Source: Escherichia phage BUCT-XGG-1
DNA: 49,653 nucleotides
Sequence record: PP069513
Strand: one strand, 5' to 3'
Position numbers and translations under genes: made by a program. The notes below the pieces were generated by a model that saw nothing but the letters and a program-made list of their open reading frames with translations, searched no databases and was not told the DNA's origin. This document shows positions 47-47,571 of this stretch, piece after piece (position 1 is the stretch's first letter; the number at the start of each line of letters is the position of its first letter).

Positions 47-271
47 ATGAAAATGAACCAGGATCTTAATAAAATTGCTTTCAACAATACCATCGCTGAC
101 ATTGCTGCCAAGGTCGAGCTATCCCGCAATCCCGTTAAGCAGATCGCTTCTGAGTGTGAGTTCTTCGCATTGCAGATTGAAGGTGACGAATACAAGAGAG
201 TGTTTGCAGCCCTAAGTAAATGCAAAACACGCAAAGCAATGAGTATTATCATCAATAGCACGAATTGCTAA
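47..271 (+). CDS. hypothetical early protein (74 aa)
   Basis: ORF with AGAGA-like RBS; last codons NSTNC plus TAA stop are supplied by the 19-bp box at 254-272. Confidence 0.5.
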   Translation: MKMNQDLNKIAFNNTIADIAAKVELSRNPVKQIASECEFFALQIEGDEYKRVFAALSKCKTRKAMSIIINSTNC

Positions 272-298
272 ACTAAGCCTCACGGATTGAGGCATAAT
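254..298 (+). promoter_or_regulatory. box promoter candidate (AATAGCACGAATTGCTAAA, then -10 CATAAT)
   Basis: Box 254-272, hairpin GCCTCA/TGAGGC, CATAAT at 293-298 (22-bp gap from TTGCTA); followed by leader CATCGAAACGAA and gene 337..561. Confidence 0.5.
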
Positions 299-336
299 AA
301 TTTCATCGAAACGAAGTACACAAAGAGGAAGTAAAA

Positions 337-561
337 ATGTCAGTTAAAACTCAGAACGTAGTGGCACACATCGAAGCAAAAGGCCGTGCAATCGTCAAGC
401 TGGACCGCGCCGCAGGCGTAAGCCAAATCACCATCACGCGCCGTGAGTTCGACCGCTACGTTGTTGGCACACATCCAGGCTCAATCATCCGTAGCCTTAC
501 CCGTGCTGAGATGGTAAACCTGTTAAACGATAACTCACTTTACATCAATTCCTGGAGCTAG
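337..561 (+). CDS. hypothetical protein (74 aa)
   Basis: ORF with RBS AAGAGGAAG upstream of ATG. Confidence 0.5.
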   Translation: MSVKTQNVVAHIEAKGRAIVKLDRAAGVSQITITRREFDRYVVGTHPGSIIRSLTRAEMVNLLNDNSLYINSWS

Positions 562-563
562 CA

Positions 564-779
564 GTGCATCAAGACAATTTCTGTAGCCGCCACCGCGCGG
601 CACTTGAAGCCGGACTCAATGAAGAGTGGGCGCTCAATGTTGCTTACGGATGCATCGAACTCGATGACGCATTGGGCGTTATGGATATGGATCTGGAAAG
701 CGAAGGCAACCAGTCAGTAGACGGAATCGGTGATGACTTCGACTACCGCTTAAAATTTGATGACGGCATACCGTTCTAA
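564..779 (+). CDS. small acidic protein ending in SSB-like tip (FDDGIPF)
   Basis: GTG start with GGAG RBS; very acidic; C-terminus DDGIPF resembles the SSB C-terminal tip DDDIPF. Confidence 0.5.
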   Translation: MHQDNFCSRHRAALEAGLNEEWALNVAYGCIELDDALGVMDMDLESEGNQSVDGIGDDFDYRLKFDDGIPF

Positions 780-785
780 GGAACC

Positions 786-1028
786 ATGATGAAAATTCTC
801 TGCAAAAACGTAATCACCAGCACAGACAAGAAGGTTCTTACACCATTCGTTAAAGGCTATGTATACGACGCTGAGCCGCTAATCATTAACGGTAAGACAA
901 TCCCGAACGAGTGGGTGATTAATGGCGCTGAGCGACCGCATAAGCACGATTCTGGCTGGATTGCTATCGCTGCATGGCCCAGCGGATTTGCCATCATTGG
1001 CATCGCAACGTTTGACGAGGTGAAATAA
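786..1028 (+). CDS. hypothetical protein (80 aa)
   Basis: ORF in tight early gene array. Confidence 0.45.
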   Translation: MMKILCKNVITSTDKKVLTPFVKGYVYDAEPLIINGKTIPNEWVINGAERPHKHDSGWIAIAAWPSGFAIIGIATFDEVK

Positions 1029-1186
1029 TGCTCACTCAAGCCATCCGATTTGAACTACTACGACAACTACACGATCGCGAAGCTCTCAGGTCAAGGATGG
1101 TATCCATGGAGCACCAGCGCTCAGGTTGAAGACTTGCAAAGCAGTTACGAAATCACAAAGAAAGCAATTGAGAAGGCAAAGAAGAA

Positions 1187-1444
1187 ATGAATAGAAAAAG
1201 AAGTCCAGACGGAAAATTTTCTGGTGATCCGCTACTACCTGGAGGTTTTCATAATTGCAACTCATGCGGAATTAAAAAGGAGGCTGACGATAAAAACTTT
1301 AGAACAATAAATAAAGGAAAAACATGCGAGAGCCTAAGCAAAACTTGCAGAAAATGCGAGTATCAAAAAGGAAAGGATAAACACGCAAGGAACATGAAAA
1401 ACCCTGAATTTGCAGATGCGAGAAGGGAAAGGTGCAGGAACTAG
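1187..1444 (+). CDS. Cys-rich protein (possible N-terminal part of an HNH-like gene)
   Basis: ATGA overlap with upstream frame; CxxC pairs; same reading frame as 1466..1756, separated by TAG at 1442-1444. Confidence 0.4.
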   Translation: MNRKRSPDGKFSGDPLLPGGFHNCNSCGIKKEADDKNFRTINKGKTCESLSKTCRKCEYQKGKDKHARNMKNPEFADARRERCRN

Positions 1445-1465
1445 AGGAGCAACAACAGAAGTAAG

Positions 1466-1756
1466 GTGGCGCTTAAAAATTATCAAGCAATAGATAAAAA
1501 GAAAGGACTTACATGCACCATGACAATTGATGATGTTGATGAGTTGCAGTCAATGCCATGCTACTATTGCGGAGATACGGAGCGGGTTGGTGCTGACAGG
1601 ATTGGCAACTCACTTGCTCACACGCGCAAAAACTGCCTTCCATGTTGCCCTGATTGTAATATCTGTAGGAGTAACACTTTTTCAGTTGATGAGATGATGG
1701 TGATAGGCAAAGCGATAAGACTCGTAAAGAAATCAAGAAATAGCACGAATTGCTAA
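1466..1756 (+). CDS. HNH-like endonuclease domain protein
   Basis: GTG start; Cys/His/Asn pattern CYYCG..DRI..H..N..PCC..CN; C-terminal NSTNC and stop encoded by the box. Confidence 0.45.
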   Translation: MALKNYQAIDKKKGLTCTMTIDDVDELQSMPCYYCGDTERVGADRIGNSLAHTRKNCLPCCPDCNICRSNTFSVDEMMVIGKAIRLVKKSRNSTNC

Positions 1757-1783
1757 AGCCCTTCGGGGCTTTTCCTGTATATT
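1739..1783 (+). promoter_or_regulatory. box promoter candidate (TGTATATT -10)
   Basis: Box 1739-1757, hairpin GCCCTTCGGGGC, TATATT at 1778-1783 (22-bp gap), leader CATCGAAACGAA, gene 1822. Confidence 0.5.
1758..1775 (+). terminator. intrinsic terminator-like hairpin
   Basis: GCCC TTCG GGGC followed by TTTTCC, directly after stop of 1466..1756. Confidence 0.4.
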
Positions 1784-1821
1784 CATCTCATCGAAACGAA
1801 ACACACTAAAGGAAAATAATC

Positions 1822-2175: not shown

Positions 2176-2246
2176 GTAGCATTTTCTGGCAAGCGGTTTT
2201 ACCATAGGTGCGTTAACATTAGCGCACCAACTAAGGAGTTATTTTA

Positions 2247-3830: not shown

Positions 3831-3833
3831 ATT

Positions 3834-4347: not shown

Positions 4348-4380
4348 AAAAAGGGAGCCTTTCGGCTCCTTTTATTTTTT
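4346..4380. terminator. bidirectional intrinsic terminator
   Basis: A-run, GGAGCC TTTC GGCTCC, T-run; lies between convergent plus early genes and minus lysis genes. Confidence 0.65.
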
Positions 4381-5599: not shown

Positions 5600-5626
5600 C
5601 GTGCGTAACGTTATGTTTTTATTGCG

Positions 5627-5827: not shown

Positions 5828-5873
5828 AATATAGCGCCTTCCGGCGCTATAGTGTTAGGCAATTCGTGCTATC
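5828..5873 (-). promoter_or_regulatory. box promoter candidate (variant ATAGCACGAATTGCCTAA)
   Basis: Box 5855-5873 abutting TGA stop of 5872..7014; hairpin GCGCC GGAA GGCGC; TATATT at 5828-5833 (23-bp gap). Confidence 0.45.
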
Positions 5874-7014
5874 AGATGTCGCTCATTTCAGGACGGTAAA
5901 CAAATCGACCTACTTCGCCGAACTCCTTGGAGTAGACGATTACCGCCGCCTGGCGATACGAGCGCCAACCGCCGCGCGCCGCATAGGCATCTTTCGCGCC
6001 CAACTGACCATGAACCTCATCAATGCCAAGTGTACCCTCAGTGATCGTCTGGTGATGCCAGTGCCCCGAGTGAGTGTAAATATATTTGCTCGTACCGAAC
6101 TCTTCGCGGAAGTCAGTAGCCATTGCCGCCAGTCGAGTATCTGCTTTCTTCATGGTGTGACCATGAGTGTATCCCAGCAATGTTTTGCCCCACTTGGTAC
6201 GGTGAAGAATCATAGGAGATGTATCAACCGTTACACGCACCTCATCTTCAAAGTATGCCGCCATTGCAGCGCGGAGCCAAATCATACCAGCCTGGTCATG
6301 GTTTCCTTCAATGATCTGAATTTCGACCTCTTCGTGCTTATCCAGCATTAGCGCCACCGCGCGGCGTACGGAACGGATTGCAACGTGAACTAGCTTGGCG
6401 TATCGACTATCCTGATCCAGTACGTGACCGCTTGCAGGCGTTACTGCGTCCAGGCCATCAGAGTGAAGGAAGTCACCGCCGATTAACAGGACTGCTTTCT
6501 TAGCCTTCGGAGATACGCCGACAGAATAATCAAAGAAGTTTTTCAGTACTTTCTCTGAGATGTCGGTGCTGTAGTTCTCACCGCATTCATGCTTGTGTGC
6601 CATAGCGCCAATATGAAGATCGAATACCGGATAGAGCGCCAGGAGATTTTCATCGTAGTGAGGTTCGCCAAGGATAGGCTGAGCCGCCGCGCGTGGTAGT
6701 TCATCACAGAATGCTTCAATTGCAGCATCCATCATGGCGGCTAACTTTTCCTTGTCCTGATCGGTCTTAACCCAGCGCACAACCTCAGAACCGTCAGCGC
6801 GAATCATAGTTGATGTACCTTTAACCTGAAAACCCTCTGGTACGTGTACTCTTACGTGTTTATTTCCGTGGAACTCACCGCGCTTTGCCAGGCGGCTTGA
6901 GCGCTGCTCAACAGTTCGAATGTTCATCCCGTATTCCTGGGCGATTTGGCGCAGTGTTTTACCAGCTTCGCGTTCAGCAATGAATTGTTCGTCAGTGATT
7001 TTTTGAATAGCCAT
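5872..7014 (-). CDS. metallophosphoesterase with N-terminal HTH
   Basis: Motifs DLHIG, GGDFLHSD, GNHD, GHTH, GHWHH (calcineurin-like, SbcD/Mre11-like order); N-terminal TLRQIAQEYGMNIRTVEQR helix-turn-helix. Confidence 0.65.
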   Translation of the reverse strand: MAIQKITDEQFIAEREAGKTLRQIAQEYGMNIRTVEQRSSRLAKRGEFHGNKHVRVHVPEGFQVKGTSTMIRADGSEVVRWVKTDQDKEKLAAMMDAAIEAFCDELPRAAAQPILGEPHYDENLLALYPVFDLHIGAMAHKHECGENYSTDISEKVLKNFFDYSVGVSPKAKKAVLLIGGDFLHSDGLDAVTPASGHVLDQDSRYAKLVHVAIRSVRRAVALMLDKHEEVEIQIIEGNHDQAGMIWLRAAMAAYFEDEVRVTVDTSPMILHRTKWGKTLLGYTHGHTMKKADTRLAAMATDFREEFGTSKYIYTHSGHWHHQTITEGTLGIDEVHGQLGAKDAYAARGGWRSYRQAAVIVYSKEFGEVGRFVYRPEMSDI

Positions 7015-7841: not shown

Positions 7842-7886
7842 AGTATACCCGCGCGGTGGCGGGTATGTTTAGCAATTCGTGCTATT
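7842..7886 (-). promoter_or_regulatory. box promoter candidate
   Basis: Box 7868-7886 containing TAG stop of 7882..8109; TATACT at 7842-7847 (22-bp gap). Confidence 0.45.
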
Positions 7887-8109
7887 CTGCGAAATATTCG
7901 GGGCAATCTCGCTTATAGTCTTCCATATCCTTTCGTATTGCAGCGCGCCATGATGATACTGACTGATCTTTCAACTCATCAAATGACATATCAAGATCAC
8001 CTGAGAATAACCACGCATCACCTTTGAACCCTGAACTTGTTAACTCATCGCAAACGATAGCACGAAATAAATGAAATTGATTACTTGATTTTACGCTCAT
8101 CTTAAACAC
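7882..8109 (-). CDS. hypothetical protein (75 aa)
   Basis: ORF overlapping end of methyltransferase gene. Confidence 0.4.
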   Translation of the reverse strand: MFKMSVKSSNQFHLFRAIVCDELTSSGFKGDAWLFSGDLDMSFDELKDQSVSSWRAAIRKDMEDYKRDCPEYFAE

Positions 8110-9107: not shown

Positions 9108-9146
9108 TTTGATTTCCTTGGTTGGTTACTTCGTTTCGATGAGGTG

Positions 9147-9192
9147 ATAATACACCACCTCACCGATTCGTCTTTAGCAATTAGTGCTATTC
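9147..9192 (-). promoter_or_regulatory. box promoter candidate
   Basis: Box ATAGCACTAATTGCTAAA (9173-9192) supplying NSTNC-stop of 9174..9602; TATTAT at 9147-9152 (22-bp gap); leader CATCGAAACGAA. Confidence 0.5.
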
Positions 9193-9602
9193 AGCATATC
9201 AGCAACGGCTTTCTTGTATTCCTCCTGGCCGTACGCCACCGCCGCGAATCCGCCACGCTCTCGGACACGCCGGAGGAAATCTTTCTGCTCCTTACTGACT
9301 GGTGATGCCTTTCCTTTTCCGCTCTTATTGACGCGCTTTAATTCTATGGCTCCGAAAGGATATTTACCGAACGGACCTAGAAGGAATACAAAGTCACTAA
9401 CCCCCTTCAATAACCCGCTCTGAGCATCCTTTAACGCCGTGTGGATGTGCTTCTTGTTCTCATTAACGGCGTGCCAGAACAGCAAATCACCATGCCTAAC
9501 CTTCGTCCAAGTCACGCAATCTACTTGGTGCTTGCTTTCCGTCCATGTGTCAGATTTGTCTGGCGTGTAATATTCAATGTAATCTATTTTATCGGTTTTC
9601 AT
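9174..9602 (-). CDS. VRR-NUC domain nuclease
   Basis: GVSDFVF ... AIELKR pattern matching VRR-NUC PD-(D/E)xK core. Confidence 0.55.
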   Translation of the reverse strand: MKTDKIDYIEYYTPDKSDTWTESKHQVDCVTWTKVRHGDLLFWHAVNENKKHIHTALKDAQSGLLKGVSDFVFLLGPFGKYPFGAIELKRVNKSGKGKASPVSKEQKDFLRRVRERGGFAAVAYGQEEYKKAVADMLNSTNC

Positions 9603-10081
9603 TTTTTCGCTCCGTGGTTTTTATGGAACCCATTGGTTGACTCTGTAAGTTTTCTTGCTGAGATTGCATCGGCAAGTGACCTTCCTTCGTATAGGAATTT
9701 TTTCTTACCGCCAATCTGTATCTGTGCTACCCATGTCTTATTCCTTGACTTCCAGTTAACTCCTGTAACTCCGCTTTTGTTGTTTGAATACATCGACTTG
9801 TTAAGCATGTTATCGCCGCGACTAACAAGCCTTAAGTTTTCTATTCTATTATCAGTTCTTATGTGGTTTATGTGGTCAACCTCCATTCCGTTCGGCATTG
9901 GTCCGTTATGCATTACCCAAACTATGACGTGAGCGGGTTATGACTTCTTTTTGTACATGACTTTAATGTAACCTTCGCTGTCTATAGTGCCGGCTAAGTC
10001 TCCCTCATACACCTTTGCGCTGGGCTTTATAGCCCAGAATAATAATCCATTTTTATAATTCAGTATGTTATTAAAAATCAT
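9599..10081 (-). pseudogene. HNH-AP2 homing endonuclease interrupted by in-frame TAA
   Basis: ATG at 10081 (ATGA overlap with helicase stop) gives MIFNNILNYKNG...YKKKS then TAA at 9938-9940, then in frame PAHVIVWVMHNG...DHINHIRTDNRIENLRLV; full-length paralogs at 17492, 36060, 12801. Confidence 0.6.
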
Positions 10082-12180: not shown

Positions 12181-12217
12181 AGTATTAAATGCCTTTCATG
12201 TTCGTTCGATTGACGTT

Positions 12218-12261
12218 ATAATAACAACCATCGAAACCAATGTTTAACAAAAAGTGCTATT
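12218..12261 (-). promoter_or_regulatory. box promoter candidate (variant ATAGCACTTTTTGTTAAA)
   Basis: Box 12243-12260; TATTAT at 12218-12223 (21-bp gap); upstream of helicase operon. Confidence 0.45.
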
Positions 12262-12264
12262 GAG

Positions 12265-12747
12265 GTGATGAAAATGAATGCAAATGATAAGCGTACTCTT
12301 AACGGTAACAACGGAACTATCCGCACGGAAGATAAGAAGCAGCGCAAACGACCGTCAGGTTACTATGTTCTCAAGGATGAAGTAAAGGCCGGATTAAGAG
12401 CGCGACTTGATATTGTGTTTGAGTTCTACGGCAGCAAGGCGAACATGGCGAAGCAATTAAAAGTTACTCGACAGGCAGTTGAGGAATGGTTTAAGCGTGG
12501 GATGATGTCGGCGCGCGGTGCTCAACTGGCGCACAACCGATATAAGCGAACTGGCGAAGGGTTCCGCGCTACATTCTGCCGACCAGACTTGCAATTCGAC
12601 GGGAACGGTAAGCCGTTAACGCTGCGTTGCAAAAAGCGTCACATGTTGCGCGTCGTCACCGAGGCTGAACTAGCCACTAAGCCTGAATGTCGCTCATGGC
12701 GAAAAATTAAAGCAGCAAACGAAGCAGCACGGAAAGCTAAAGAATAA
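12265..12747 (+). CDS. HTH DNA-binding protein (Cro/YdaS-like)
   Basis: Segment GSKANMAKQLKVTRQAVEEWF fits an HTH; basic protein; divergent from helicase operon. Confidence 0.45.
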   Translation: MMKMNANDKRTLNGNNGTIRTEDKKQRKRPSGYYVLKDEVKAGLRARLDIVFEFYGSKANMAKQLKVTRQAVEEWFKRGMMSARGAQLAHNRYKRTGEGFRATFCRPDLQFDGNGKPLTLRCKKRHMLRVVTEAELATKPECRSWRKIKAANEAARKAKE

Positions 12748-12800: not shown

Positions 12801-13247
12801 GTGAAGATATTAAGATTTTTGTATCTATATAAAGATGGTAATTTAATTCGATGCTACAGGGCTGGGAGGCACGCGCCTGGAGAAGTAGCAGGCACTGCTC
12901 ATATCTCAGGTTACATTCATGTTGGCGTGCTAGGGAAAATAATGAAAGCGCATAGGGTTTCATGGTGGATAAACTATGGCTTCATACCTGATCATTTGCA
13001 TATAGACCACAAAAATCACATTAGGAGTGATAACAGAATAGAAAACCTTGAATTGAAAAGTAACGCCGAGAATCACAAAAACATGTCTATATATAAAAAC
13101 AATAAGAGTGGAACTCATGGCGTTAGATGGAATAGAAAATTCTCAAGGTGGGACGTAAACATCGTAGTTAATGGCAAAAAGTGCTACGTTGGAGTTTTCA
13201 AGTCTCTTTCTGCCGCAGTAGATGCTAAGATTAAAGCAGAAATATAA
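12801..13247 (+). CDS. HNH-AP2 homing endonuclease
   Basis: GTG start after GGAG RBS; HxxH..N..H HNH core (HIDHKNHIRSDNRIENL) and AP2-like tail; start moved downstream of terminator. Confidence 0.7.
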   Translation: MKILRFLYLYKDGNLIRCYRAGRHAPGEVAGTAHISGYIHVGVLGKIMKAHRVSWWINYGFIPDHLHIDHKNHIRSDNRIENLELKSNAENHKNMSIYKNNKSGTHGVRWNRKFSRWDVNIVVNGKKCYVGVFKSLSAAVDAKIKAEI

Positions 13248-13273
13248 AATAAATTTCATAGGAATCATGGAAA

Positions 13274-14218
13274 ATGAATGAGCCAAATTACCAGAAAGAA
13301 GAAGTGCTGCCGTATATGAAGGGATTATGGCGTGAAGCGTTACAATCCATTTGTGGCTTGCAGTCCGGCGTGTTCAATAAGAAGCACCAACCATGCCCTT
13401 ACTGCGGCGGCAAGGATAGATTCCGGTGGACTGACGAACTAGACTCCCCTGGTGACGGCGGCGCGATCTGTAACGGATGTGGTAACGATAAAGGCGTCGG
13501 CTGGATGATGAAACTGACTGGTGAGCCTTACAGTGAAGTGATTAACATCCTTGGTCGATTCCTTAGTAAAGTTCCGCAGGATTACAAAGCTAAGGCTTAC
13601 CGCAGGGCGTCTCGCGTACCGGAGAAAGGCCTTGGCAAGATGGCGGATCATGAGTCGTGCGTATCTGTAATGGAACGCACAGAAAAGCGCGAGAGCACCG
13701 ATTTAAGCGTGTATGAGTGCCTAACCGAAGATTCATATGATGTTGGCGTAAAAGTGCGTCAGAATGGCACTGAGGAGCTAATACACGCACTACCGTGCTA
13801 CATGGTCCACCATGACGGAATTGATGAGGATATGTGTAACGTCATGTTTGCTTATGATAATGGCGAATACACTTTCCTTGCGCGTGATTATTCTCGCGGC
13901 TCAGTGGTTAAACTGGGGGGTGGCGAGGATGATGCAGCTATATATATGACAAGCGATCTGATTGATGGTTATCGTGTGAAGATGGCGACCAGTCAGGAAG
14001 TGTGGGTGACTTTCTCCCCTGAGAATCTTGAGATTGTTGCTTATCGGTATCGTGGCGAACGTGAATTGCGCGTAGCGTGTCCTGCTGATGATTTGCGAAC
14101 GCTTTACATGGCAGATGAACGTGATTTAAAAGTTGTAGTGCCGAACGGAGGAAACTTCAAAATGGGCCTTGAGCGAAAGTTATATACGCCGCAGGATCTG
14201 ATAGATAAGTATTCATAA
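13274..14218 (+). CDS. DNA primase-like protein with zinc-ribbon
   Basis: CPYCGGKDRFRW ... CNGCG zinc-binding motif typical of phage primase N-termini. Confidence 0.6.
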   Translation: MNEPNYQKEEVLPYMKGLWREALQSICGLQSGVFNKKHQPCPYCGGKDRFRWTDELDSPGDGGAICNGCGNDKGVGWMMKLTGEPYSEVINILGRFLSKVPQDYKAKAYRRASRVPEKGLGKMADHESCVSVMERTEKRESTDLSVYECLTEDSYDVGVKVRQNGTEELIHALPCYMVHHDGIDEDMCNVMFAYDNGEYTFLARDYSRGSVVKLGGGEDDAAIYMTSDLIDGYRVKMATSQEVWVTFSPENLEIVAYRYRGERELRVACPADDLRTLYMADERDLKVVVPNGGNFKMGLERKLYTPQDLIDKYS

Positions 14219-14224
14219 CAATTA

Positions 14225-14245
14225 CCCGCTACGGCGGGTTTTTTT
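14225..14245 (+). terminator. intrinsic terminator
   Basis: CCCGC TACG GCGGG followed by T7. Confidence 0.65.
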
Positions 14246-14270
14246 ATGCCTGACGTAATGCTACAATGTG

Positions 14271-14289
14271 TTTTAGCAATTAGTGCTAT
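14271..14289 (-). promoter_or_regulatory. orphan box copy in inverted orientation
   Basis: TTTTAGCAATTAGTGCTAT on plus strand; no -10 at the usual spacing in the box orientation; sits 22 nt upstream of tail fibre ATG. Confidence 0.4.
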
Positions 14290-14312
14290 CCATAAAAAAA
14301 GAGGTTTACATT

Positions 14313-17452: not shown

Positions 17453-17495
17453 ATTATAGCAAATCACCGCGTTCGTGTTTAGCAAAAAGTGCTAC
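17453..17495 (-). promoter_or_regulatory. box promoter candidate
   Basis: Box GTAGCACTTTTTGCTAAA (17478-17495) containing TAG stop of HNH gene; hairpin CGGTGATT..AATCACCG holding TGCTATAAT (21-bp gap). Confidence 0.5.
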
Positions 17496-17950
17496 CTGCC
17501 ATGCCTTAAAGTAAAATCACCATTCATTGAGATGTATCTTTCCCTTGCCTCTTTCGCTTCAATTGCCGTGTTGAAACTACCAAGGCTTTTCTGCACTCCA
17601 TTTACCTTTACCCTTGCGTTCCATTTACATCTTTGCTTAACAAAAACAACACCTGTGAATCCTGATGTGTTATTTGACTGCATCTTTTTATTTTTATTGT
17701 TGATGGCTCTAGTTACAAGTCTTAGGTTTTCAATCCTGTTATCACTTCTTATTCCGTTAATGTGGTCTATCTCGTAACCTTCTGGTATAGGTCCGTAGTG
17801 CATTTCCCATATAACCCTATGATATAGAAACTTCACATAGTTAAATGAGATCATTAAGTACCCGTTACCTTTCGGTGTTCCGGCAATCTTGCCGCTTTTT
17901 ATCCAGTAAAGGTTGCCGTCTATGTATTTTAATTTCTCATTGAAATTCAT
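17492..17950 (-). CDS. HNH-AP2 homing endonuclease
   Basis: EIDHINGIRSDNRIENLRLV HNH core and AP2-like C-terminal region; inserted between exonuclease and Erf. Confidence 0.8.
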   Translation of the reverse strand: MNFNEKLKYIDGNLYWIKSGKIAGTPKGNGYLMISFNYVKFLYHRVIWEMHYGPIPEGYEIDHINGIRSDNRIENLRLVTRAINNKNKKMQSNNTSGFTGVVFVKQRCKWNARVKVNGVQKSLGSFNTAIEAKEARERYISMNGDFTLRHGR

Positions 17951-19345: not shown

Positions 19346-19412
19346 AACTGCGCGTATATCATTTTCCGCGGACGAGATTGTATACATCGAGTTACATCGG
19401 TTACACGTATAC

Positions 19413-19458
19413 AATAGCACAAATAGCTAAAGACTCCGCCGCTCGTTGCATGTATAGT
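19413..19458 (+). promoter_or_regulatory. box promoter candidate (variant AATAGCACAAATAGCTAAA)
   Basis: Box 19413-19431, TGTATAGT at 19453-19458 (23-bp gap), then membrane peptide and lipoprotein genes. Confidence 0.45.
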
Positions 19459-19494: not shown

Positions 19495-19590
19495 ATGAAA
19501 AACGTAATCATCTCAATAATTTTCGGCGCGGCTGTTACTGGTTTCTTCGTGTGGGTTCTCACTCTTGCTTCTAACTTCAACGGATTCTAA
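19495..19590 (+). CDS. small membrane peptide (31 aa)
   Basis: Unlisted ORF MKNVIISIIFGAAVTGFFVWVLTLASNFNGF; hydrophobic. Confidence 0.3.
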   Translation: MKNVIISIIFGAAVTGFFVWVLTLASNFNGF

Positions 19591-36063: not shown

Positions 36064-36545
36064 TTTTTACTCCCGTGATTTTTATGAAATTTATATACAG
36101 ACTCCGCAACCTTTCTTGCAGAGATTGCGTCATCTTTTCTATCGTATCTACCAAGGAATTTCTCCTTTTTGTCCACCCTTATTGAAGCAATCCATTTACT
36201 GGTTCTATTACACCAGCTAACGCCAACAACTCCGCTTTTGTTTGACTTGCTCATGGATACGTTTTTGCAATTCTCTTGTCTAGTAGTTACGAGCCTTAGG
36301 TTTTCTATCCTGTTATCATCTCTGATATGGTTTATATGGTCAATCTCCATTCCTTCAGGTATTTTACCATGGTGCATCTCCCATATTACCCTATGAGCCG
36401 GAGTTAGCCTACCCATAATCCTAACGTAAATATATCCACCCTCATCCTTCCAGCCAGCCATATCGCCAACTTTAACCCTTTTCGATGTCGGATTTTTCCA
36501 GATGAGATCTTTCTCTATATGATAAAAATAATCATTGAAATTCAT
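36060..36545 (-). CDS. HNH-AP2 homing endonuclease
   Basis: EIDHINHIRDDNRIENLRLV core and AP2-like tail; inserted between head morphogenesis and scaffold genes with 4-nt overlaps. Confidence 0.8.
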   Translation of the reverse strand: MNFNDYFYHIEKDLIWKNPTSKRVKVGDMAGWKDEGGYIYVRIMGRLTPAHRVIWEMHHGKIPEGMEIDHINHIRDDNRIENLRLVTTRQENCKNVSMSKSNKSGVVGVSWCNRTSKWIASIRVDKKEKFLGRYDRKDDAISARKVAESVYKFHKNHGSKK

Positions 36546-37312
36546 AGTTGATCCCCACTGCTATCAAATGATGGCACGGCCCAGCATCGGCAGCCGTAAG
36601 GCTCACCAGGGAACGGATGGTCACTTGAGATCTCAATACGTTTCCCTTCCCATTTTACGTGCTGCAATCGCTCGCGTTCATCCAGCTTACCATGCCAGAA
36701 GTAGTGAGTTACTCCCGCATCCTCCAGGCGCTGGCGCATCAGTACGCTGTTCCATGTGGACACAATTCCACGTGAGCGATTCACAGTCCAGCCAGTATAC
36801 ACCTTGTAGCGCTGCTTTAAAACTTCATCAATCTGCTGACTTGTTTTATTGCGCACGTTTTCGACGCGTAGGTTTTGCGACCAGTCAGAGATAATGTCGT
36901 TCGATAACTTTAGGATGCTAGCCTCAGCCGAACCGCGCCATTGCGATGACTTCTCGCGATACCATGACTCATTGGCATTCGCCCCGAGCGCGCCAAGCAA
37001 GATCACAGATTGATTCTTTCCGCCACCAGCCTTTTTCGCCACGTTGAGGAATTGCCTTGAGTTAAACTTGTAGATAGTCAGAGCCAGCGCCGGAAGCGTG
37101 GCAACAATCGCCGCGATCAGTCCGGCAGCATATTCCGCAAGATCACTTTCTGCATCATTGATTTCTTCGTCCGAAGCGTCAAACCTCATGCCGCCAGTAA
37201 GCGATCTGGCTTTCTTTGCCATCTCGCCTGCGAATATTGACAATGAGCGGCTAAGCTGCCGCTCGCTTGCTTCGGGGTAACTCCATTGGTTTACAATGCC
37301 GTTAACCTTCAT
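36542..37312 (-). CDS. head morphogenesis protein (minor capsid, Mu F/SPP1 gp7-like)
   Basis: Position after portal; C-terminal ...GEPYGCRCWAV motif. Confidence 0.6.
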   Translation of the reverse strand: MKVNGIVNQWSYPEASERQLSRSLSIFAGEMAKKARSLTGGMRFDASDEEINDAESDLAEYAAGLIAAIVATLPALALTIYKFNSRQFLNVAKKAGGGKNQSVILLGALGANANESWYREKSSQWRGSAEASILKLSNDIISDWSQNLRVENVRNKTSQQIDEVLKQRYKVYTGWTVNRSRGIVSTWNSVLMRQRLEDAGVTHYFWHGKLDERERLQHVKWEGKRIEISSDHPFPGEPYGCRCWAVPSFDSSGDQL

Positions 37313-41452: not shown

Positions 41453-41529
41453 TGGCGTTCAGCGCTGGACTCGAACCAGCAACTAAGACTTAGGAGGTCT
41501 TTGCGTTATCCTGTTAACGCCAGCAGAAC
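41453..41529 (-). tRNA. tRNA-Arg (anticodon CCU)
   Basis: Hand-folded cloverleaf: D stem GCGT/ACGC, anticodon stem AAGAC/GTCTT, loop CU-CCU-AA, T arm GCTGG-TTCGAGT-CCAGC, encoded CCA; acceptor stem has one U.U mismatch. Confidence 0.65.
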
Positions 41530-42696: not shown

Positions 42697-42726
42697 TTCT
42701 GCTTCCTCGTTCGTTTCGATGGGGTA

Positions 42727-42770
42727 ACTATACAGCCACCCCGATTATGAGTTTTAACAAAAAGTGCTAT
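42727..42770 (-). promoter_or_regulatory. box promoter candidate
   Basis: Box ATAGCACTTTTTGTTAAAA (42752-42770) containing TAG stop of upstream gene; hairpin with TGTATAGT (22-bp gap); leader CATCGAAACGAA. Confidence 0.5.
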
Positions 42771-43165
42771 CGTTGGTGATTTCGTGCATTCTTTTTCATT
42801 GCGGCGAATGCGATAAAGCAGAACATCCCAGGCTCAGTAAATCGAAGCTTACCGTACTGGCGGCACATGCGGCGAAATTTACGCTTGTCGTTTAACACGT
42901 TAGTTACACGTTTTTCAGTCACCACTAAGCTGCGCGGACCCTTTACTACCACGAAAGTGACGGCTGGGCCACTTGCGAGATTCAGGTTGTACTTGCTTCC
43001 TTTCTGGACGGCGTACCATGAAAGACCGTTATAATCATCAATGACATCAGCCACGTTGAGGTGACGGTTAGGTCGGCGCTTGGCCTCGTATACTTGACCA
43101 ACCTGAAAGTAATCATTAAACAGCATCGCTAACCCTGGATGTATTTTAACACAACGTAATTTCAT
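42767..43165 (-). CDS. hypothetical basic protein
   Basis: Start taken at MKLRCV (GGGGA RBS); stop TAG lies inside the box. Confidence 0.45.
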   Translation of the reverse strand: MKLRCVKIHPGLAMLFNDYFQVGQVYEAKRRPNRHLNVADVIDDYNGLSWYAVQKGSKYNLNLASGPAVTFVVVKGPRSLVVTEKRVTNVLNDKRKFRRMCRQYGKLRFTEPGMFCFIAFAAMKKNARNHQR

Positions 43166-43167
43166 GG

Positions 43168-43326
43168 TTATCCCCATTCGTTTTCGTCAAATTGTTGATT
43201 GTTGATCTGAGTGCGAACCTCTTTAACCATCTCTGAGAACTCATCGGCTGAGCACTGCATAGTCTGAGTGGCCAGTAGTTGCTTAAGGATGACGGCTTGC
43301 TTGTCTGACAGGTTGATAGTAATCAT
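43168..43326 (-). CDS. small hypothetical protein (52 aa)
   Basis: Unlisted ORF MITINLSDKQAVILKQ... with GAGAGGAAAG RBS. Confidence 0.3.
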   Translation of the reverse strand: MITINLSDKQAVILKQLLATQTMQCSADEFSEMVKEVRTQINNQQFDENEWG

Positions 43327-43355
43327 TTTGCTTTCCTCTCGTTTGGTGTGAACTA

Positions 43356-43401
43356 ACTATAACAAAACCCGCCGGAGCGGGTTTAGCAATTCGTGCTATT
43401 T
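43356..43401 (-). promoter_or_regulatory. box promoter candidate
   Basis: Box 43382-43401 abutting TAA of kinase gene; hairpin CCCGCTCCGGCGGG; TGTTATAGT (22-bp gap). Confidence 0.5.
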
Positions 43402-44020
43402 ACCAAGGAATATCGTCGGCCCAATCATCATCCATTGAAGGACTAACCAAGCAAGCGCGAACTACTTTAAGGACGCCATCATCAACATCACCATTTACCA
43501 GATGCACATCATGCTCGTTATATTTCTTGTAATCAGGGAAGTGCGATTCCTTGATGCGGATGTAATCACGGCTATCTCCCGCGAAAGTCTTGCCATCCAT
43601 GAACAAGCGGACCAGGGTAACATCGTGACCATCTTCAACGAGTCGAATCACTTCATCGGGGAAGCCGCCATCAGTGCAAACAAAACAGAAGCCTTCATCA
43701 CACAGACGGATATGTTCGCTCATCAATTTGCCGAACTGCTGATTGCCAAAAAGCGGCTTGACCACCGTTTCGCTAATCCAGATCATGAACTCACGGCAGG
43801 TCTTGCCACCGAGAAAGACCTGAGGCTGCTCTTTCTGATCGCGGTCGTCGTATGCTGTGATGAACTTTGAAAAAGCCCTGGCCCCAAGGATGGATGCTGC
43901 AATCTCAAACATCGGACGTTTGAAGCTGGTAGGGATGCAATTGTAATCTGCTGCCAGTGCATTGCCGATCGTGTCTTTACCTACGCCAGCAGGGCCGTTT
44001 AGAATGATAATCTTTGACAT
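43400..44020 (-). CDS. P-loop kinase (dNMP kinase-like) with SSB-like tip DDIPW
   Basis: Walker A GPAGVGKDT; C-terminus DDDWADDIPW. Confidence 0.6.
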   Translation of the reverse strand: MSKIIILNGPAGVGKDTIGNALAADYNCIPTSFKRPMFEIAASILGARAFSKFITAYDDRDQKEQPQVFLGGKTCREFMIWISETVVKPLFGNQQFGKLMSEHIRLCDEGFCFVCTDGGFPDEVIRLVEDGHDVTLVRLFMDGKTFAGDSRDYIRIKESHFPDYKKYNEHDVHLVNGDVDDGVLKVVRACLVSPSMDDDWADDIPW

Positions 44021-44069
44021 TTTGATATTCCTGAGAAGTGGGCGCGATGTGCGCCAGTTAAGGTTAGTT

Positions 44070-44687
44070 TTATTTACCGCTTACGAGATTGCATTTTTTG
44101 CACTGGCGAACGCCATGTGGAGGTAGCGGATCGCTAAATTCGTGCTCGCAAACTTTTTCTACGCCGTGAGACTTAAGTCCAGAGTGCACGTTGTCGCCAT
44201 AGTCACACACCTGATAGGTGGTGATGCCGAGGCTTCTGAAGTGCGCGATAACGCTAGGACTATCATCAAAGGCCGCAGTGATGCGGTGCAAGCCAATGTA
44301 TCGTAAAAATTCTTCCTTGATGATCGTATCCTTTCGATTGTCATCAGCTTGGCGCATGACCAGAAAGTTGTATTTAGCGCCAGCATCATACAGCCATTGC
44401 GTTGATTCTTCAACAACTGCATCCGATCGACCAGTAAGTACGATGATGAAAGCGCCGGAAGCGAACAGGCCATTCATTACGTCAATCGTTTCCTGGAATG
44501 GCGTGTCGAATTTACTCAGTGAGTTAAATTCAAGCCATGACTCAGTGAGGTGTAAATCTTTGGTCGGTAGCTTATGCAGGCGGTGAGTTCCGTCTGACAG
44601 AGTGCCGTCGAAATCAAAGCAGTATACTTTTTTATTGACTGCAACTGTTTCTAAATGGTGTTTAATCATGGTGTATAGCTGATTCAT
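44070..44687 (-). CDS. HAD-superfamily phosphatase
   Basis: HAD motif I FDFDGTLSD near N-terminus; C-terminal Cys pairs. Confidence 0.65.
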   Translation of the reverse strand: MNQLYTMIKHHLETVAVNKKVYCFDFDGTLSDGTHRLHKLPTKDLHLTESWLEFNSLSKFDTPFQETIDVMNGLFASGAFIIVLTGRSDAVVEESTQWLYDAGAKYNFLVMRQADDNRKDTIIKEEFLRYIGLHRITAAFDDSPSVIAHFRSLGITTYQVCDYGDNVHSGLKSHGVEKVCEHEFSDPLPPHGVRQCKKCNLVSGK

Positions 44688-45136
44688 AGTAAGTATCCTG
44701 TAGTTATCACTCTGTATGCTGTTCTTTTGCCAACTCCCATTGCGTCAGCTATATCCTGATAGGTCATGCCATCAGTTCTCATTCTTAACATCTTTCTTGA
44801 GTCTTCGCTAGTTACTATTGACTTCGGGTTCTTAAGCCCCTCAACGCTTCGGAACCTGCCCTTCGATACGCAATCAATCACGTTATCATGCTGACTACCT
44901 ACCGATAGGTGCTTTGGATTAATGCAAGAAGGATTATCGCATGAATGCATTATTACACCTTTTACGCATTCATAATCTACATCATTGCTTATGAAGTAAG
45001 CTACTTTGTGCGCCCTTCTAGTAGCTCCAGCGTATCTTACCTGGCCATATCCATCAACGGTCCTTGAGTTATTCCACTCTATACAATCATCCGTCTGCCT
45101 CCTTATCATTATTATTAATTCATCTACCTTTTTCAT
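44684..45136 (-). CDS. HNH endonuclease with C-terminal HTH
   Basis: HSCDNPSCINPKHL HNH/zinc motif and C-terminal HTH (MTYQDIADAMGVGKRTAYRV); 4-nt overlap with phosphatase. Confidence 0.65.
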   Translation of the reverse strand: MKKVDELIIMIRRQTDDCIEWNNSRTVDGYGQVRYAGATRRAHKVAYFISNDVDYECVKGVIMHSCDNPSCINPKHLSVGSQHDNVIDCVSKGRFRSVEGLKNPKSIVTSEDSRKMLRMRTDGMTYQDIADAMGVGKRTAYRVITTGYLL

Positions 45137-45167
45137 GTTGCCACCCTTTCGTGTGGTTGGTGTGGGG

Positions 45168-45212
45168 ATTATACCAGTCAGGATGAATCCCCTTTTAACA
45201 AAAAGTGCTATT
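45168..45212 (-). promoter_or_regulatory. box promoter candidate
   Basis: Box 45194-45212 containing TAG stop; hairpin GGGGATT..AATCCCC holding TGGTATAAT (22-bp gap). Confidence 0.5.
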
Positions 45213-46014
45213 TGATATAGAACTGAGCCACTACGCCACCATCAGGATTTATGATTGCGTATGCGTCACCGAGCGTTGCCTTGGCATTCATAACCTTACC
45301 AATTCTCCTGGCTTCCCAACGGTAATCACCTTTTAATCCAGAGCAGAAGGCATCTTGCGTGATTTGAATAAGTCGCGGATCACATCCTGGTTCGCATTCA
45401 TCAATTTCATACGCGTACTCGCAACCATTGATAAACTCATTGCCTCCAACATGGTAGCAAACCGCCACCTTGCGATCGCGTGCTGATTCACATTCACCCA
45501 CCGCCCATACGTGACGATTGCTATAACCGTAACCTCCGCTTCGTGGTTCCATTTTCGCGGTTGACATGGTAAGCGCCTTGCCTTCACCGAAATTGCTACC
45601 GAAAGTGAACTTGGCATCTTTCGTCAGGTAATCAAACTTTACGCCATCATCTACGACGGTTTTCCCTGAGCCAGCCGCAAGCTCATTCACGAATGCATCG
45701 ACAGTGCTGTGACACGGATCGCCATTGTACTTAGGCAAATCCTTGAGCAATTGCTCACATGCTTCGTGAATCAACTTTCCAGCCACCGCTTTGAGGATTG
45801 CTTGCTCAACATGGTCAGCGATAATCGACGGTGAAGAAATTTGATGTTTTTGAGTCCATTCTAAGGCCTTTAAACGCTCCTGTAACGAATCGATTTCTTG
45901 CTTATGCATTGCGTAGGATACCCATGCTCCATCGTCGCAGGCTTGCATTCCGACGCCGTGAATGTTGACGCTGGTTGCCACTGCTACATGGTTAAAACGG
46001 TTGATGCTGTTCAT
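45208..46014 (-). CDS. hypothetical Cys-rich protein (268 aa)
   Basis: ORF after box promoter; no recognisable motif. Confidence 0.5.
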   Translation of the reverse strand: MNSINRFNHVAVATSVNIHGVGMQACDDGAWVSYAMHKQEIDSLQERLKALEWTQKHQISSPSIIADHVEQAILKAVAGKLIHEACEQLLKDLPKYNGDPCHSTVDAFVNELAAGSGKTVVDDGVKFDYLTKDAKFTFGSNFGEGKALTMSTAKMEPRSGGYGYSNRHVWAVGECESARDRKVAVCYHVGGNEFINGCEYAYEIDECEPGCDPRLIQITQDAFCSGLKGDYRWEARRIGKVMNAKATLGDAYAIINPDGGVVAQFYIK

Positions 46015-46055
46015 ATGTGATTCCTCAGTTGGTTTGTGTTCACTTGACAGGAGAC

Positions 46056-46099
46056 ACTATAGCTAATGTCTCCGAGCAAGTTTTAACAAAAAGTGCTAT
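46056..46099 (-). promoter_or_regulatory. box promoter candidate
   Basis: Box 46081-46099 containing TAG stop; hairpin GGAGACA..TGTCTCC with GCTATAGT (22-bp gap). Confidence 0.5.
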
Positions 46100-46314
46100 T
46101 CGATGAACCCAACGCGAACCGCAGCATCAAGTGTGATGTAATCATCGGCCGTCAACGATGAGTGATAGGTAAAGATTCCAGCCTGGATGCCCTTTACCAA
46201 CTGATCCTGTGTGATGCGTGAGATTTTAACAACCCCGACATCGCTACCAGTGCGCAGGATAACATCGCCTACCGCGCAAAACTCAACGCCTTTACTGTTA
46301 ACATAGACTTGCAT
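46096..46314 (-). CDS. hypothetical protein (72 aa)
   Basis: ORF; stop inside box. Confidence 0.4.
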   Translation of the reverse strand: MQVYVNSKGVEFCAVGDVILRTGSDVGVVKISRITQDQLVKGIQAGIFTYHSSLTADDYITLDAAVRVGFIE

Positions 46315-46492
46315 GATTATTGCTCCTTCAACTTTTGGTAGATGCCCTTAACCACTCCGAGCGAAATGGCCAGGGGCCAGATAGCGGCAACGATTACCAT
46401 GTCGTACCACTTGTTGTCACTATTGCTAACATCTTTTGCAATTGCATAAACCGGAAGTGCGCCAAGAGCGTAAAGCAGAATGCATAAAGTAA

Positions 46493-46723
46493 TCATAAAT
46501 ACCCCTTCTCAGCGCGGTGGGCCGCTTCCATCAGATACACTGCCAACTGGCGCGCCTGGTCTGGCGTGTACACCATGTAACTTGATGCGTCAACATACTC
46601 TTCAGGATTGAAGTCAACGCACACCTTGAATGCAAAGCCCTGGGTGCTGCTATGCAGTTTCTTTACCATTACCTCGGCCTGTTCGCCTGAGTCGTCAGCG
46701 ATGCGTACGGCGGTTGTGCTCAT
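46493..46723 (-). CDS. hypothetical protein (76 aa)
   Basis: ORF after box promoter; RBS AAGGGG. Confidence 0.4.
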   Translation of the reverse strand: MSTTAVRIADDSGEQAEVMVKKLHSSTQGFAFKVCVDFNPEEYVDASSYMVYTPDQARQLAVYLMEAAHRAEKGYL

Positions 46724-46762
46724 AAATTACCCCTTAGTTTATTGTTTCACTTCAATGAGTGC

Positions 46763-46806
46763 ACTATAGCAAATGCACTCACGGCAGTTTTAACAAAAAG
46801 TGCTAT
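46763..46806 (-). promoter_or_regulatory. box promoter candidate
   Basis: Box 46788-46806 containing TAG stop; hairpin GAGTGCA..TGCACTC with TGCTATAGT (22-bp gap). Confidence 0.5.
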
Positions 46807-47093
46807 CGTTCATCTTCTCTGGAGCATCCCTTGCCGCAACCATGGCGACCAACTCCCACGATCCCGGCGCCGCTTAAGCTGATGTATTCCTGACCAGTGT
46901 CCTTATCGGTGATGACGTATATCGCTCTGACGTTCTCATATGCCAGTTCATCCCTGAACTCCTGAATCTTCACAACCTGGACGCGATCGTTGACATTCAC
47001 TGGCATCTTCTGCCGAGCCTCTGAATCTACACAGGTGCTTCCGAAATCACATCCAGCCAGAGCTAGTGCTGCTAATAAAATTAGTTTCTTCAT
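46803..47093 (-). CDS. lipoprotein
   Basis: MKKLILLAALALAGC signal peptide with lipobox. Confidence 0.5.
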   Translation of the reverse strand: MKKLILLAALALAGCDFGSTCVDSEARQKMPVNVNDRVQVVKIQEFRDELAYENVRAIYVITDKDTGQEYISLSGAGIVGVGRHGCGKGCSREDER

Positions 47094-47290
47094 TCGATAA
47101 TCCTCACTACTTTCTCTTTGCGATGCGGTGCGCCGGACTTATGCAGCCAGTAGCGAGCCTGGTAAAGCTGGCTTGCATGGGCCACTGTAACCCACCAGAA
47201 CAAAGCCACCCGTTTTTGGACGGAATACCACTTGACCGGATGACCGAAGGTGGTAGTCGTGTCAACCAATGCGATCCTGAATTTACTCAT
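47090..47290 (-). CDS. hypothetical protein (66 aa)
   Basis: ORF with 4-nt overlap to downstream gene. Confidence 0.35.
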   Translation of the reverse strand: MSKFRIALVDTTTTFGHPVKWYSVQKRVALFWWVTVAHASQLYQARYWLHKSGAPHRKEKVVRIIE

Positions 47291-47348
47291 CGGCTTCTGC
47301 CTCCACTTCCTCAGCCGCCCTGATGAGTGCCGCCGCCAGTTTGCGGGC

Positions 47349-47501
47349 TTACTTAGGACTGTATTGCATCAGTGTCTGGCCGCCCCTGTAGTAATCCGGA
47401 TCGAAGTCAATGGACACAACGGTATCCCAATCTCTTTTTGTGATGGCTACTTCAGCCTGGTCAAAGTAAACATCTTCAATACGAACATTTTTCATCTTCA
47501 T
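47349..47501 (-). CDS. hypothetical protein (~50 aa)
   Basis: Start taken at MKMKNV after AAAGAGGAAA RBS. Confidence 0.35.
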   Translation of the reverse strand: MKMKNVRIEDVYFDQAEVAITKRDWDTVVSIDFDPDYYRGGQTLMQYSPK

Positions 47502-47525
47502 TTCCTCTTTGTTGTCTATGGGGTA

Positions 47526-47571
47526 ATCATAGCTGACTACCCGATCCATTGTTTAGCAATTCGTGCTATTC
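47526..47571 (-). promoter_or_regulatory. box promoter candidate
   Basis: Box 47552-47571 containing TAG stop of 47566..48123; hairpin GGGTA..TACCC with GCTATGAT (22-bp gap). Confidence 0.5.

Follow-up and report, generated by a model that had tools for sequence, protein, structure and literature searches.

Why do genes of unrelated function end, one after another, in copies of the same short repeat? The question arises in Escherichia phage BUCT-XGG-1 (sequence record PP069513), whose 49,653-bp sequence, referred to here as the window, carries 17 copies of a 19-21 nt element that we call the box. A preliminary description of this sequence held that the stop codon of the preceding gene lies inside the box or touches it in 12 of the 17 copies. 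It left two explanations side by side: a strongly constrained box to which gene ends have adapted, or boxes that spread as units while the 3' ends of genes recombine at them. Comparison with related phages indicates that this fusion of gene ends is genuine, occurs almost throughout the family and is not a product of chance. As to its origin, we favour, at a probability of roughly 0.7, a reading in which phages across Drexlerviridae use a compact, composite promoter/terminator cassette, with the box as its upstream element and also as a terminator of open reading frames (ORFs). The fused stops would then be a side effect of genome compaction and of the shuffling of cassettes, and would not represent a new mechanism.

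The window is the genome of a T1-like siphophage of the genus Nouzillyvirus (Drexlerviridae). Over the aligned parts, it shares 92-94% nucleotide identity with phages TH21, P817 and 50EP and about 89% with ESCO41, the type phage. The window's final base runs straight into its first base in phage PH1062, so the window represents a complete genome that is circularly permuted and was opened at an arbitrary point. Two comparison sets were used. The first comprises 11 genomes, namely the window, eight congeneric genomes, and T1 and Rtp, which belong to other subfamilies. The second comprises 131 sequences and adds to these 120 box-containing stretches from IMG/VR, nearly all out of contigs of about 42-53 kb, as in T1-like genomes.

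The box and its published counterpart

Boxes were called with a position weight matrix (PWM) at a score of at least 23.5. The 17 copies, found at the positions given in the preliminary description, follow the pattern AATAGCAC-NNN-TTG(C/T)TAAA. Eleven of them differ by at most three mismatches from AATAGCACGAATTGCTAAA, where 0.01 would be expected. TAGCAC and (T/A)TGyTAAA are constant across all copies, and the core TAGCA-N5-TGCTA is palindromic. The central triplet is GAA in seven copies, TTT in seven, TAA in two and AAA in one. Fifteen copies are oriented toward a downstream co-directional gene; the exceptions are the antisense copy 14290(-) and the copy 49284(+), after which comes a second box. 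In 10 related genomes, T1 and Rtp included, there are 15-23 boxes each, and box places are orthologous from T1 and Rtp to Nouzillyvirus. An 18th, weak PWM match (AATCGCACGAAAGGTTAAA, 24522-24504, minus strand), conserved in all relatives, was rejected. It is read as a look-alike because it lies 4 nt before the ATG of the tail-tip (J-like) gene and contains the likely Shine-Dalgarno (SD) or ribosome-binding region.

A repeat of this kind was described in the 2024 re-annotation of phage TLS. TLS contains 21 copies of a 21-nt direct repeat, aaATAGCACnnnTTGnTAAAA, which lies between genes, runs along the direction of transcription about 76 nt ahead of start codons and falls into subgroups A, T and G by its central triplet (AAA, TTT, GAA) (PMC11447400). 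Genomes with this repeat have some 18-21 copies. Its authors also refer to unpublished copies in T1, Rtp and Rogue1, and they propose a stoperator, an enhancer site or an UP-like element while leaving the function open (PMC11447400). The two elements agree in sequence family, copy number, orientation, distance to the start codon and triplet subgroups; by this match, the window box is the published TLS repeat. The searchable text and supplements of the TLS paper do not mention embedded stops, the 22-nt spacing to a -10, a hairpin dependent on the upstream gene, or box-to-box indels, and the embedded stop codons likewise find no mention in the rest of the literature searched. Nothing apart from this paper emerged when the literature was searched for the exact box sequence, promoter motifs of Drexlerviridae, and transcriptome or start-site data. 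In an Rfam scan, a tRNA was the sole match, and the box had none. The identity with the published repeat, the fixed spacing to a -10-like hexamer and the dependence of the hairpin on the upstream gene were all absent from the preliminary description.

Gene ends fused to the box

The count of 12 fused copies agrees with the ORF list, and it understates the effect, because the other five copies (19413+, 49284+, 49529+, 14290- and 12261-) have no co-directional gene upstream. Among window boxes that follow such a gene, the fusion rate is 12/12. Seven genes, all on the minus strand, stop at the TAG of TAGCAC (7882..8109, 17492..17950, 42767..43177, 45208..46014, 46096..46314, 46803..47093 and 47566..48123). 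Three genes stop at the TAA of GCTAAA. Their products are a 74-aa orphan protein (47..271, ending ...IIINSTNC), an endonuclease-VII-like protein (1466..1756, ...KSRNSTNC) and a VRR-NUC protein (9174..9602, ...DMLNSTNC). They had been called unrelated, and the sole cross-match among them is indeed the tail region (E=0.01). The remaining two ends sit at the box edge: the TGA at 5872-5874 overlaps box positions 1-2 and is followed by the in-frame box TAG, and the TAA at 43400-43402 shares the first A of the box.

The pattern extends well beyond the window. In the 11-genome set, where an upstream ORF was counted as reaching a box if it had at least 35 codons, 144 copies are so reached. The stop is the box TAG in 85 of them, the box TAA in 19, and a codon overlapping or touching the 5' edge in 38; two are read through, which leaves 142/144 with a stop in or at the box. 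A first pass had returned 27 apparent read-through cases, nearly all of them downstream genes extended upstream through the box, and two remain after scoring by ORF length upstream of the box. When upstream gene ends are made non-redundant across the 131 sequences, 252/266 (95%) are fused and 14 end 5-81 nt before the box. The fused ends use the box TAG (154), the box TAA (32), a T followed by the first AA of the box (T+AA, 39) or a tandem stop (27). The 39 cases of T+AA over box position 1 are informative: genes in the frame without a box stop still terminate exactly at the edge, and fusion is thus not merely a matter of ORFs running to the next stop.

The TAG frame is in excess and accounts for about 70% of fused ends. 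About seven of some ten credible TAG stops in the genome are box TAGs, a tally curated from an approximate, greedily built gene set that includes a few wrong-strand ORFs. The box supplies the stop for about one gene in seven.

The direction of adaptation can be read from the codons around the stop. Box positions 1-2 vary (AA, GA, GG, CG, CA) along with the last sense codon, and TAGCAC stays constant. In 143/154 non-redundant cases, the amino acid encoded just ahead of the box TAG is K, E, R or Q, as dictated by the leading AA or GA of the box. The flank directly upstream of the box has an information content of about zero. Tails follow the box subtype: GAA and TAA boxes yield NSTNC, and TTT boxes yield NSTFC. 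Comparison of orthologous gene ends, proposed in the preliminary description, identified the NSTNC tail as lineage-specific in the VRR-NUC protein. This protein ends in ...DML-NSTNC in the window and in phage ETEP102; in ESCO41 and Rtp it ends in ...EMISK and in T1 in ...EMMK, stopping at the box TAG. Judged by these patterns, the NSTNC and NSTFC tails are by-products of a box read in frame 1. Two earlier proposals are upheld. The conserved unit is DNA or RNA and not protein, given the use of three frames, the non-coding copies and the tails that follow the subtype. Gene ends have adapted to a constrained box, as seen in the drift of positions 1-2, the residue bias and the lineage-specific VRR-NUC frame solutions.

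A fixed layout downstream of the box

The box is followed by elements at set distances. Of 79 non-redundant cassettes, 49 have their best TATAAT-like hexamer beginning at box position 40, and 62 have it beginning somewhere in positions 39-41; this places the hexamer 22 nt beyond TTGyTA. In the window, 16 of the 17 copies have the hexamer at positions 39-41, one of them weak (TAATGT, box 49284), and in 14 of the 17 the start codon lies 69-86 nt from box position 1. With the hexamer taken as a -10, the palindrome TAGCA-N5-TGCTA would be centred near -42, and a -35 is absent at normal spacing. Consensus scanning for sigma-70 promoters gave matches no commoner than in shuffled sequence and did not pick out the cassettes, in which it met only weak -35s of the TAAACA type. 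A terminator scan likewise returned counts not above those in shuffled sequence and did not pick out the cassettes. Promoter features in the ETEP102 record are software predictions; a few of them coincide by position with the hexamer after a box, and they were not counted as evidence.

Just after the hexamer, four cassettes carry an exact 12-mer, CATCGAAACGAA (304-315, 1789-1800, 9130-9141 on the minus strand and 42710-42721 on the minus strand). The leader is often ATCGAAACGAA, and looser variants of the 12-mer occur in other cassettes and in T1 and Rtp. The 12-mer is probably a conserved leader at the start of the transcript.

The hairpin that accompanies the upstream gene

A stable hairpin, formed by the 22-nt spacer and bases around the hexamer, follows 12/12 fused boxes, with folding energies (dG) of -8.9 to -17.6 kcal/mol and z-scores (z) of -2.1 to -5.0. 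At the five boxes without an upstream gene, the hairpin is absent or weak. Across 77 non-redundant cassettes, the median minimum free energy is -12.15 for fused vs -3.6 for unfused boxes (Mann-Whitney p=2.6e-7), with a genome background of -4.7. A clear T-run, as in intrinsic terminators, stands after two or three of the hairpins (1739, 43400 and partly 7886); the others hold the -10 in the loop or the 3' arm.

As far as this distribution can tell, the hairpin is part of the transcript of the upstream gene, and two transcription units are interleaved without spare bases. The order along the DNA would thus be the ORF stop with the box, the hairpin of the upstream RNA, and then the -10 of the downstream RNA, since a stable hairpin occurs with an upstream gene only.

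Cassette exchange at boxes

The preliminary description had suggested that genes recombine at boxes, and swaps and indels with ends exactly at a box are indeed present, although they are no more frequent than at other gene junctions. In different phages, one and the same downstream unit follows different, unrelated genes, with the joint exactly at the box; the upstream ends number at least five for box 254 and at least seven for box 1739. At least three box-to-box cassette indels are precise. PH1062 reads as window[..253] + box + window[1758..] and lacks 273..1757, a 1,485-bp cassette of about six ORFs flanked by boxes 254 and 1739. In ETEP102, the 707 bp that separate boxes 46807 and 46100 are missing, and the upstream flank of the former adjoins the downstream flank of the latter; the junction box has its position-1 G from one box and its flank from the other. 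An 888-bp cassette is missing from TH21, where box 46100 is joined to 45212. Furthermore, where the window has box 5873, TH30 and TH27 possess an HNH cassette with a box on either side.

Ends of high-scoring segment pairs lie within 25 nt of a box in 42/305 cases vs 7.2 expected at random positions, a six-fold enrichment. Boxes were considered as recombination hot spots on this basis and rejected, for the enrichment vanishes against a gene-junction baseline. Of the unique breakpoints, about 14% fall at boxes, and boxes occupy a roughly equal proportion of gene junctions, both figures being approximate hand tallies. The proposal that boxes spread as units is not supported, given this low breakpoint share and the orthologous positions from T1 to Rtp. 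By annotation of relatives, the phage encodes exonuclease VIII, Erf and SSB homologues, for which homologies of this length would plausibly suffice.

Presence/absence polymorphisms of about 460-500 bp distinguish the window from close relatives at 9602-10076, 12805-13291, 36070-36566, 44687-45145 and 17495-17960. They lie mostly at box-less junctions and account for much of the mosaicism of the genus. The polymorphism at 17492..17950 is an HNH endonuclease gene, which hints that the others may be homing-type genes too.

A proposed composite cassette and its alternatives

Under the favoured reading, a cassette would run from the box through a 22-nt spacer containing the upstream-transcript hairpin to the -10-like hexamer, the leader start, a Shine-Dalgarno sequence and the ATG, 69-86 nt in total. 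With no nucleotides to spare, each upstream ORF would extend to the box, and the box would close it, by TAG in one frame, by TAA in another and by a preceding T plus its first As in the third. Recombination between near-identical 19-bp repeats would insert, delete or swap whole cassettes. An ORF with its stop in a box would be re-closed by any box beside which it lands, and cassette exchange would keep such ends intact. The cassette would act as a promoter with a start site about 7 nt after the hexamer, and the box, centred at about -42, would substitute for the missing -35 by binding a factor or RNA polymerase. The hairpin would terminate or stabilise the upstream RNA, and compaction would be the selective force.

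Several points weigh against this reading. The -10, start-site and terminator roles are all inferred from sequence. At 22 nt, the gap from TTGyTA to the hexamer is too long for sigma-70; recognition must be by something other than a plain sigma-70 contact with a -35. Most hairpins have no U-tract, and their terminator role may therefore be doubtful. Compaction alone does not account for the excess of the TAG frame, and as the selective force it is an argument from pattern. Finally, 95/123 pairwise indel or replacement records involve no box.

A first alternative, which we consider unlikely, denies the box a place in the promoter. It would instead be a roadblock or repressor site of the stoperator kind, or an RNA element in the 3' untranslated region of the upstream gene, hence the fusion. 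Such a site would suit copies that are orientation-specific and intergenic, and two reverse copies (14272-14290 and 12243-12261) lie within or just after the likely transcription starts of the opposite-strand tail-fibre and helix-turn-helix (HTH) regulator genes. An RNA element would suit the core, which could form a 5-bp stem with a G-U pair preserving it in TGTTA variants. However, five of the 17 copies lack an upstream gene, and four of those five keep the hexamer at positions 39-41, one of them weak. The spacing is fixed to this downstream hexamer and to nothing upstream, and in mosaics the box shows no preference for staying with the upstream over the downstream unit. Recognisable promoters are otherwise absent from the genome, and the lack of an Rfam match also counts against an RNA element.

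Less probable again is a functional coupling in which the ribosome must halt in the box, a set distance before the hairpin, and fusion is regulatory, not merely compact. Halting would govern hairpin folding (termination, anti-termination or Rho protection) or clear the box for the next promoter. The distance is not constant: stops occur at three offsets (-2, +2 and +15 from box position 1), and the stop-to-hairpin distance varies by 17 nt. Orthologous VRR-NUC genes change their frame solution in front of the same downstream cassette, the 14 non-redundant genes mentioned above end ahead of the box altogether, and boxes without an upstream gene keep the same -10 spacing. This idea draws its force from the constant contiguity of stop, box and hairpin, from the confinement of the hairpin to places where a translated gene enters the box, and from the strong preference for the TAG frame.

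It is very improbable that boxes are parts of small mobile units inserting preferentially at or next to stop codons. Box-flanked cassettes do come and go among close relatives, and HNH endonuclease genes are frequent cargo, but the copies share the box, the -10 and the leader only, with no terminal repeats or target duplications at junctions. Moreover, boxes occupy orthologous places in different subfamilies, in T1 and Rtp as well as in Nouzillyvirus, and most endonuclease insertions lie at box-less junctions. Last, a chance or ORF-calling artefact, by which any open frame meeting stops in two of three frames seems to end there, could appeal to the TAG and TAA in two box frames and to the heuristic artefacts among first-pass read-through cases and small ORFs, but is refuted by stop-less-frame genes that still end at the box edge, by the fusion of 95% of non-redundant ends, and by the conservation of the upstream ORFs, which are annotated as genes with PHROG or Pfam families in relatives.

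Comparison with known systems

The closest analogue is, on the strength of shared organisation, the promoter-early stem-loop (PeSL) cassette of T4-like phages, a promoter plus stem-loop between small genes whose recombination deletes, inserts or swaps expressed ORF modules (PMC2839356, PMC4122927). Mini-circles and promoter/terminator activity of PeSLs were shown experimentally (PMC2839356). The box cassette resembles a PeSL in the stem-loop after 12/12 fused boxes, with a terminator role predicted from sequence, and in its box-to-box indels, the HNH cassette between boxes and the swapping of ORF modules. It departs from the description of PeSLs in lacking a -35 at 16-18 nt, its conserved element lying about 5 bp further upstream, and in a stem-loop placed between that element and the -10 or around the -10. 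For the box cassette, promoter and terminator activity is a prediction from sequence, and boxes are no more recombinogenic than other junctions.

Stoperators of mycobacteriophage L5 are bound by the prophage repressor and block elongation. The boxes are like them in being many short asymmetric sites in short intergenic gaps, in one orientation relative to transcription. In contrast, T1-like phages are described as virulent, and the fixed distance from the box to a downstream -10 fits a promoter element better. Class II activator-dependent promoters, such as PRM with lambda cI or those with CRP/FNR sites centred near -41.5, offer another parallel: with the hexamer at box positions 40-45 as the -10, the cassette would combine a palindromic site at about -42, a poor or absent -35 and a good -10. 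In compact phage genomes, stop and start signals overlap (ATGA, TAATG) and promoters overlap gene ends, and the cassette shares with them adjacent functional elements that use the same nucleotides. It differs from them in that one repeated regulatory motif supplies the stops and, in one frame, adds a fixed peptide tail.

Candidate readers of the box

Because the box is found at early genes too, its reader may be a host factor or RNA polymerase itself. Among phage proteins, the HTH protein encoded at 12275..12747 is Cro/YdaS-like, with a score below the Pfam cut-offs. In the divergent region between the helicase and regulator genes (12181-12280), a TATAAT at 12217-12222 (+) overlaps a TATTAT on the minus strand, forming back-to-back hexamers. 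The box at 12243-12261 ends 1 nt before the SD sequence (GAGGTG) of the HTH regulator gene, which probably starts at ATG 12275. This layout would suit autoregulation if the HTH protein binds the box.

The tail-fibre region (14219-14320, plus strand) has the primase terminator at 14224-14245, a possible extended -10 (TGcTACAAT, 14259-14267) and then the reverse box at 14272-14290. The tail-fibre gene probably starts at ATG 14313, with an SD sequence (AAGAGG) at 14298-14303, and not at the GTG 14283 of the ORF list. The reverse box would cover about -2 to +17 of the tail-fibre transcript, a repressor-like position. Upstream of the leftmost minus-strand operon (48129..48656 and 47566..48123, both with PHROGs of unknown function) no box is present. 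Two sigma-70-like matches lie there at 48765-48736 and 48720-48693, and the first minus-strand box follows the operon, as in T1 and ESCO41. These may be box-independent immediate-early genes.

A wider and rather speculative extension, which we consider doubtful, makes the box the single operator of a T1-type programme. A phage protein would read it at about -42, activating transcription in the forward orientation and repressing it where the box is reversed, and the same box would serve as ORF terminator, homology patch and switch. The reader may be the Cro-like HTH regulator, which is conserved, or a protein from the leftmost operon, which lacks a box. Reversed boxes would then repress the tail-fibre gene and the regulator's own gene, and the homology patch would serve RecE/Erf-type recombination.

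The individual cassettes

On the plus strand, box AATAGCACGAATTGCTAAA (254-272, cassette 254..298) closes gene 47..271 by its TAA at 269-271. It is followed by a hairpin at 277-293 (dG -9.3, z -3.8), CATAAT at 293-298 and the next ATG at 337. Box 1739-1757 (cassette 1739..1783) closes the endonuclease-VII-like gene 1466..1756 by TAA 1754-1756; its terminator-like hairpin, GCCCTTCGGGGC, has a T-run, and TATATT (1778-1783) precedes the next ATG at 1822. Box AATAGCACAAATAGCTAAA (19413-19431, cassette 19413..19458) stands in a divergent region with TATAGT at 19453-19458 and no hairpin (z +0.3). Box AATAGCACTTTTTGCTAAA (49284..49302) lies in a control region of about 1 kb, with a weak TAATGT and a weak AU-rich fold. 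Box AATAGCACGAAATGTTAAA (49529-49547, cassette 49529..49573) has TATAGT at 49568-49573 and no hairpin, and precedes gene 47..271 across the window ends. Homology with most relatives stops at 49301, in box 49284, and at 19404-19411, before box 19413. After the latter cassette, an ORF of about 31 codons (19495-19590, plus strand) begins like a signal peptide (MKNVIISIIFGAAVTG...) and may be a short or truncated gene for a membrane protein or lipoprotein.

The other boxes are on the minus strand. Box GATAGCACGAATTGCCTAA (5873-5855, cassette 5828..5873) follows the DNA-repair exonuclease gene 5872..7014, which stops at TGA 5874-5872, and has a hairpin (dG -15.3, z -5.0) and TATATT. Box 7886-7868 (cassette 7842..7886) lies downstream of gene 7882..8109, with the hairpin TACCCGC..GCGGGTA (dG -13.0) and TATACT. 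Box AATAGCACTAATTGCTAAA (9191-9173, cassette 9147..9191) closes the VRR-NUC gene 9174..9602 at TAA 9176-9174; its hairpin surrounds TATTAT (dG -17.6), and its leader is CATCGAAACGAA. Box AATAGCACTTTTTGTTAAA (12261-12243, cassette 12218..12261), with TATTAT, stands ahead of the helicase gene (ATG 12180) and has no strong hairpin (z -1.0). Box GATAGCACTAATTGCTAAA (14272..14290), antisense between the primase terminator and the tail-fibre gene, is kept in T1 and Rtp; a -10 at the usual spacing, a hairpin and a co-directional gene downstream are all missing. Box GGTAGCACTTTTTGCTAAA (17496-17478, cassette 17453..17496) follows the HNH endonuclease gene 17492..17950, with a hairpin around TGcTATAAT (dG -12.7). 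In 6/8 Nouzillyvirus-like genomes compared, the TAG of this box ends the exonuclease gene itself.

The remaining six boxes lie toward the right end of the window. Box GATAGCACTTTTTGTTAAA (42771-42753, cassette 42727..42771), after gene 42767..43177, has the hairpin GGGGTGGCT..ACCCC (dG -14.4), with TATAGT in and after the loop and the leader ATCGAAACGAA. At box 43400-43382 (cassette 43356..43400), gene 43400..44020 stops at TAA 43402-43400, the solution for the frame without a box stop, and the terminator CCCGCTCCGGCGGG continues through TTTT into TGtTATAGT (dG -12.4). Box 45212-45194 (cassette 45168..45212) follows gene 45208..46014 and has the hairpin GGGGAT..ATCCCC (dG -13.4) and TATAAT. 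Box 46100-46082 (cassette 46056..46100) follows gene 46096..46314, with GGAGACA..TGTCTCC folded around TATAGT (dG -14.8). A second copy of GATAGCACTTTTTGTTAAA (46807-46789, cassette 46763..46807) follows gene 46803..47093, with GAGTGCA..TGCACTC around TGcTATAGT (dG -15.4). Box 47570-47552 (cassette 47526..47570) follows gene 47566..48123, with the hairpin GGGTAGTC..TACCC (dG -13.3) and TATGAT.

Elsewhere in the window, a single tRNA-Arg gene with anticodon CCT lies at 41453-41529 (minus strand). The ESCO41 record annotates a tRNA-Arg(TCT) in a comparable part of its genome, by position a candidate counterpart.

Significance

T1-like phages are common laboratory and fermentation contaminants as well as candidates for phage therapy, yet next to nothing is known of their transcription, and hardly any sigma-70 promoters turn up in standard scans of their genomes. 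Of the initial interpretation, the DNA/RNA unit and the adapted gene ends stand, recombination stands in part, and the spread of boxes as units does not. A published, unexplained repeat thereby becomes a testable cassette model with a fixed geometry, an upstream-transcript hairpin, predicted start sites and candidate regulators. For annotation, C-terminal NSTNC or NSTFC and many TAG stops are derived from the box, and two start codons in the window were probably mis-set by naive ORF calling. For phage engineering, boxes are natural cassette borders at which genes may be added or removed without breaking their neighbours. Should the box also prove to be the single operator outlined above, any ORF between two boxes would be closed, terminated and expressed, and a virulent siphovirus would possess plug-and-play cassettes.

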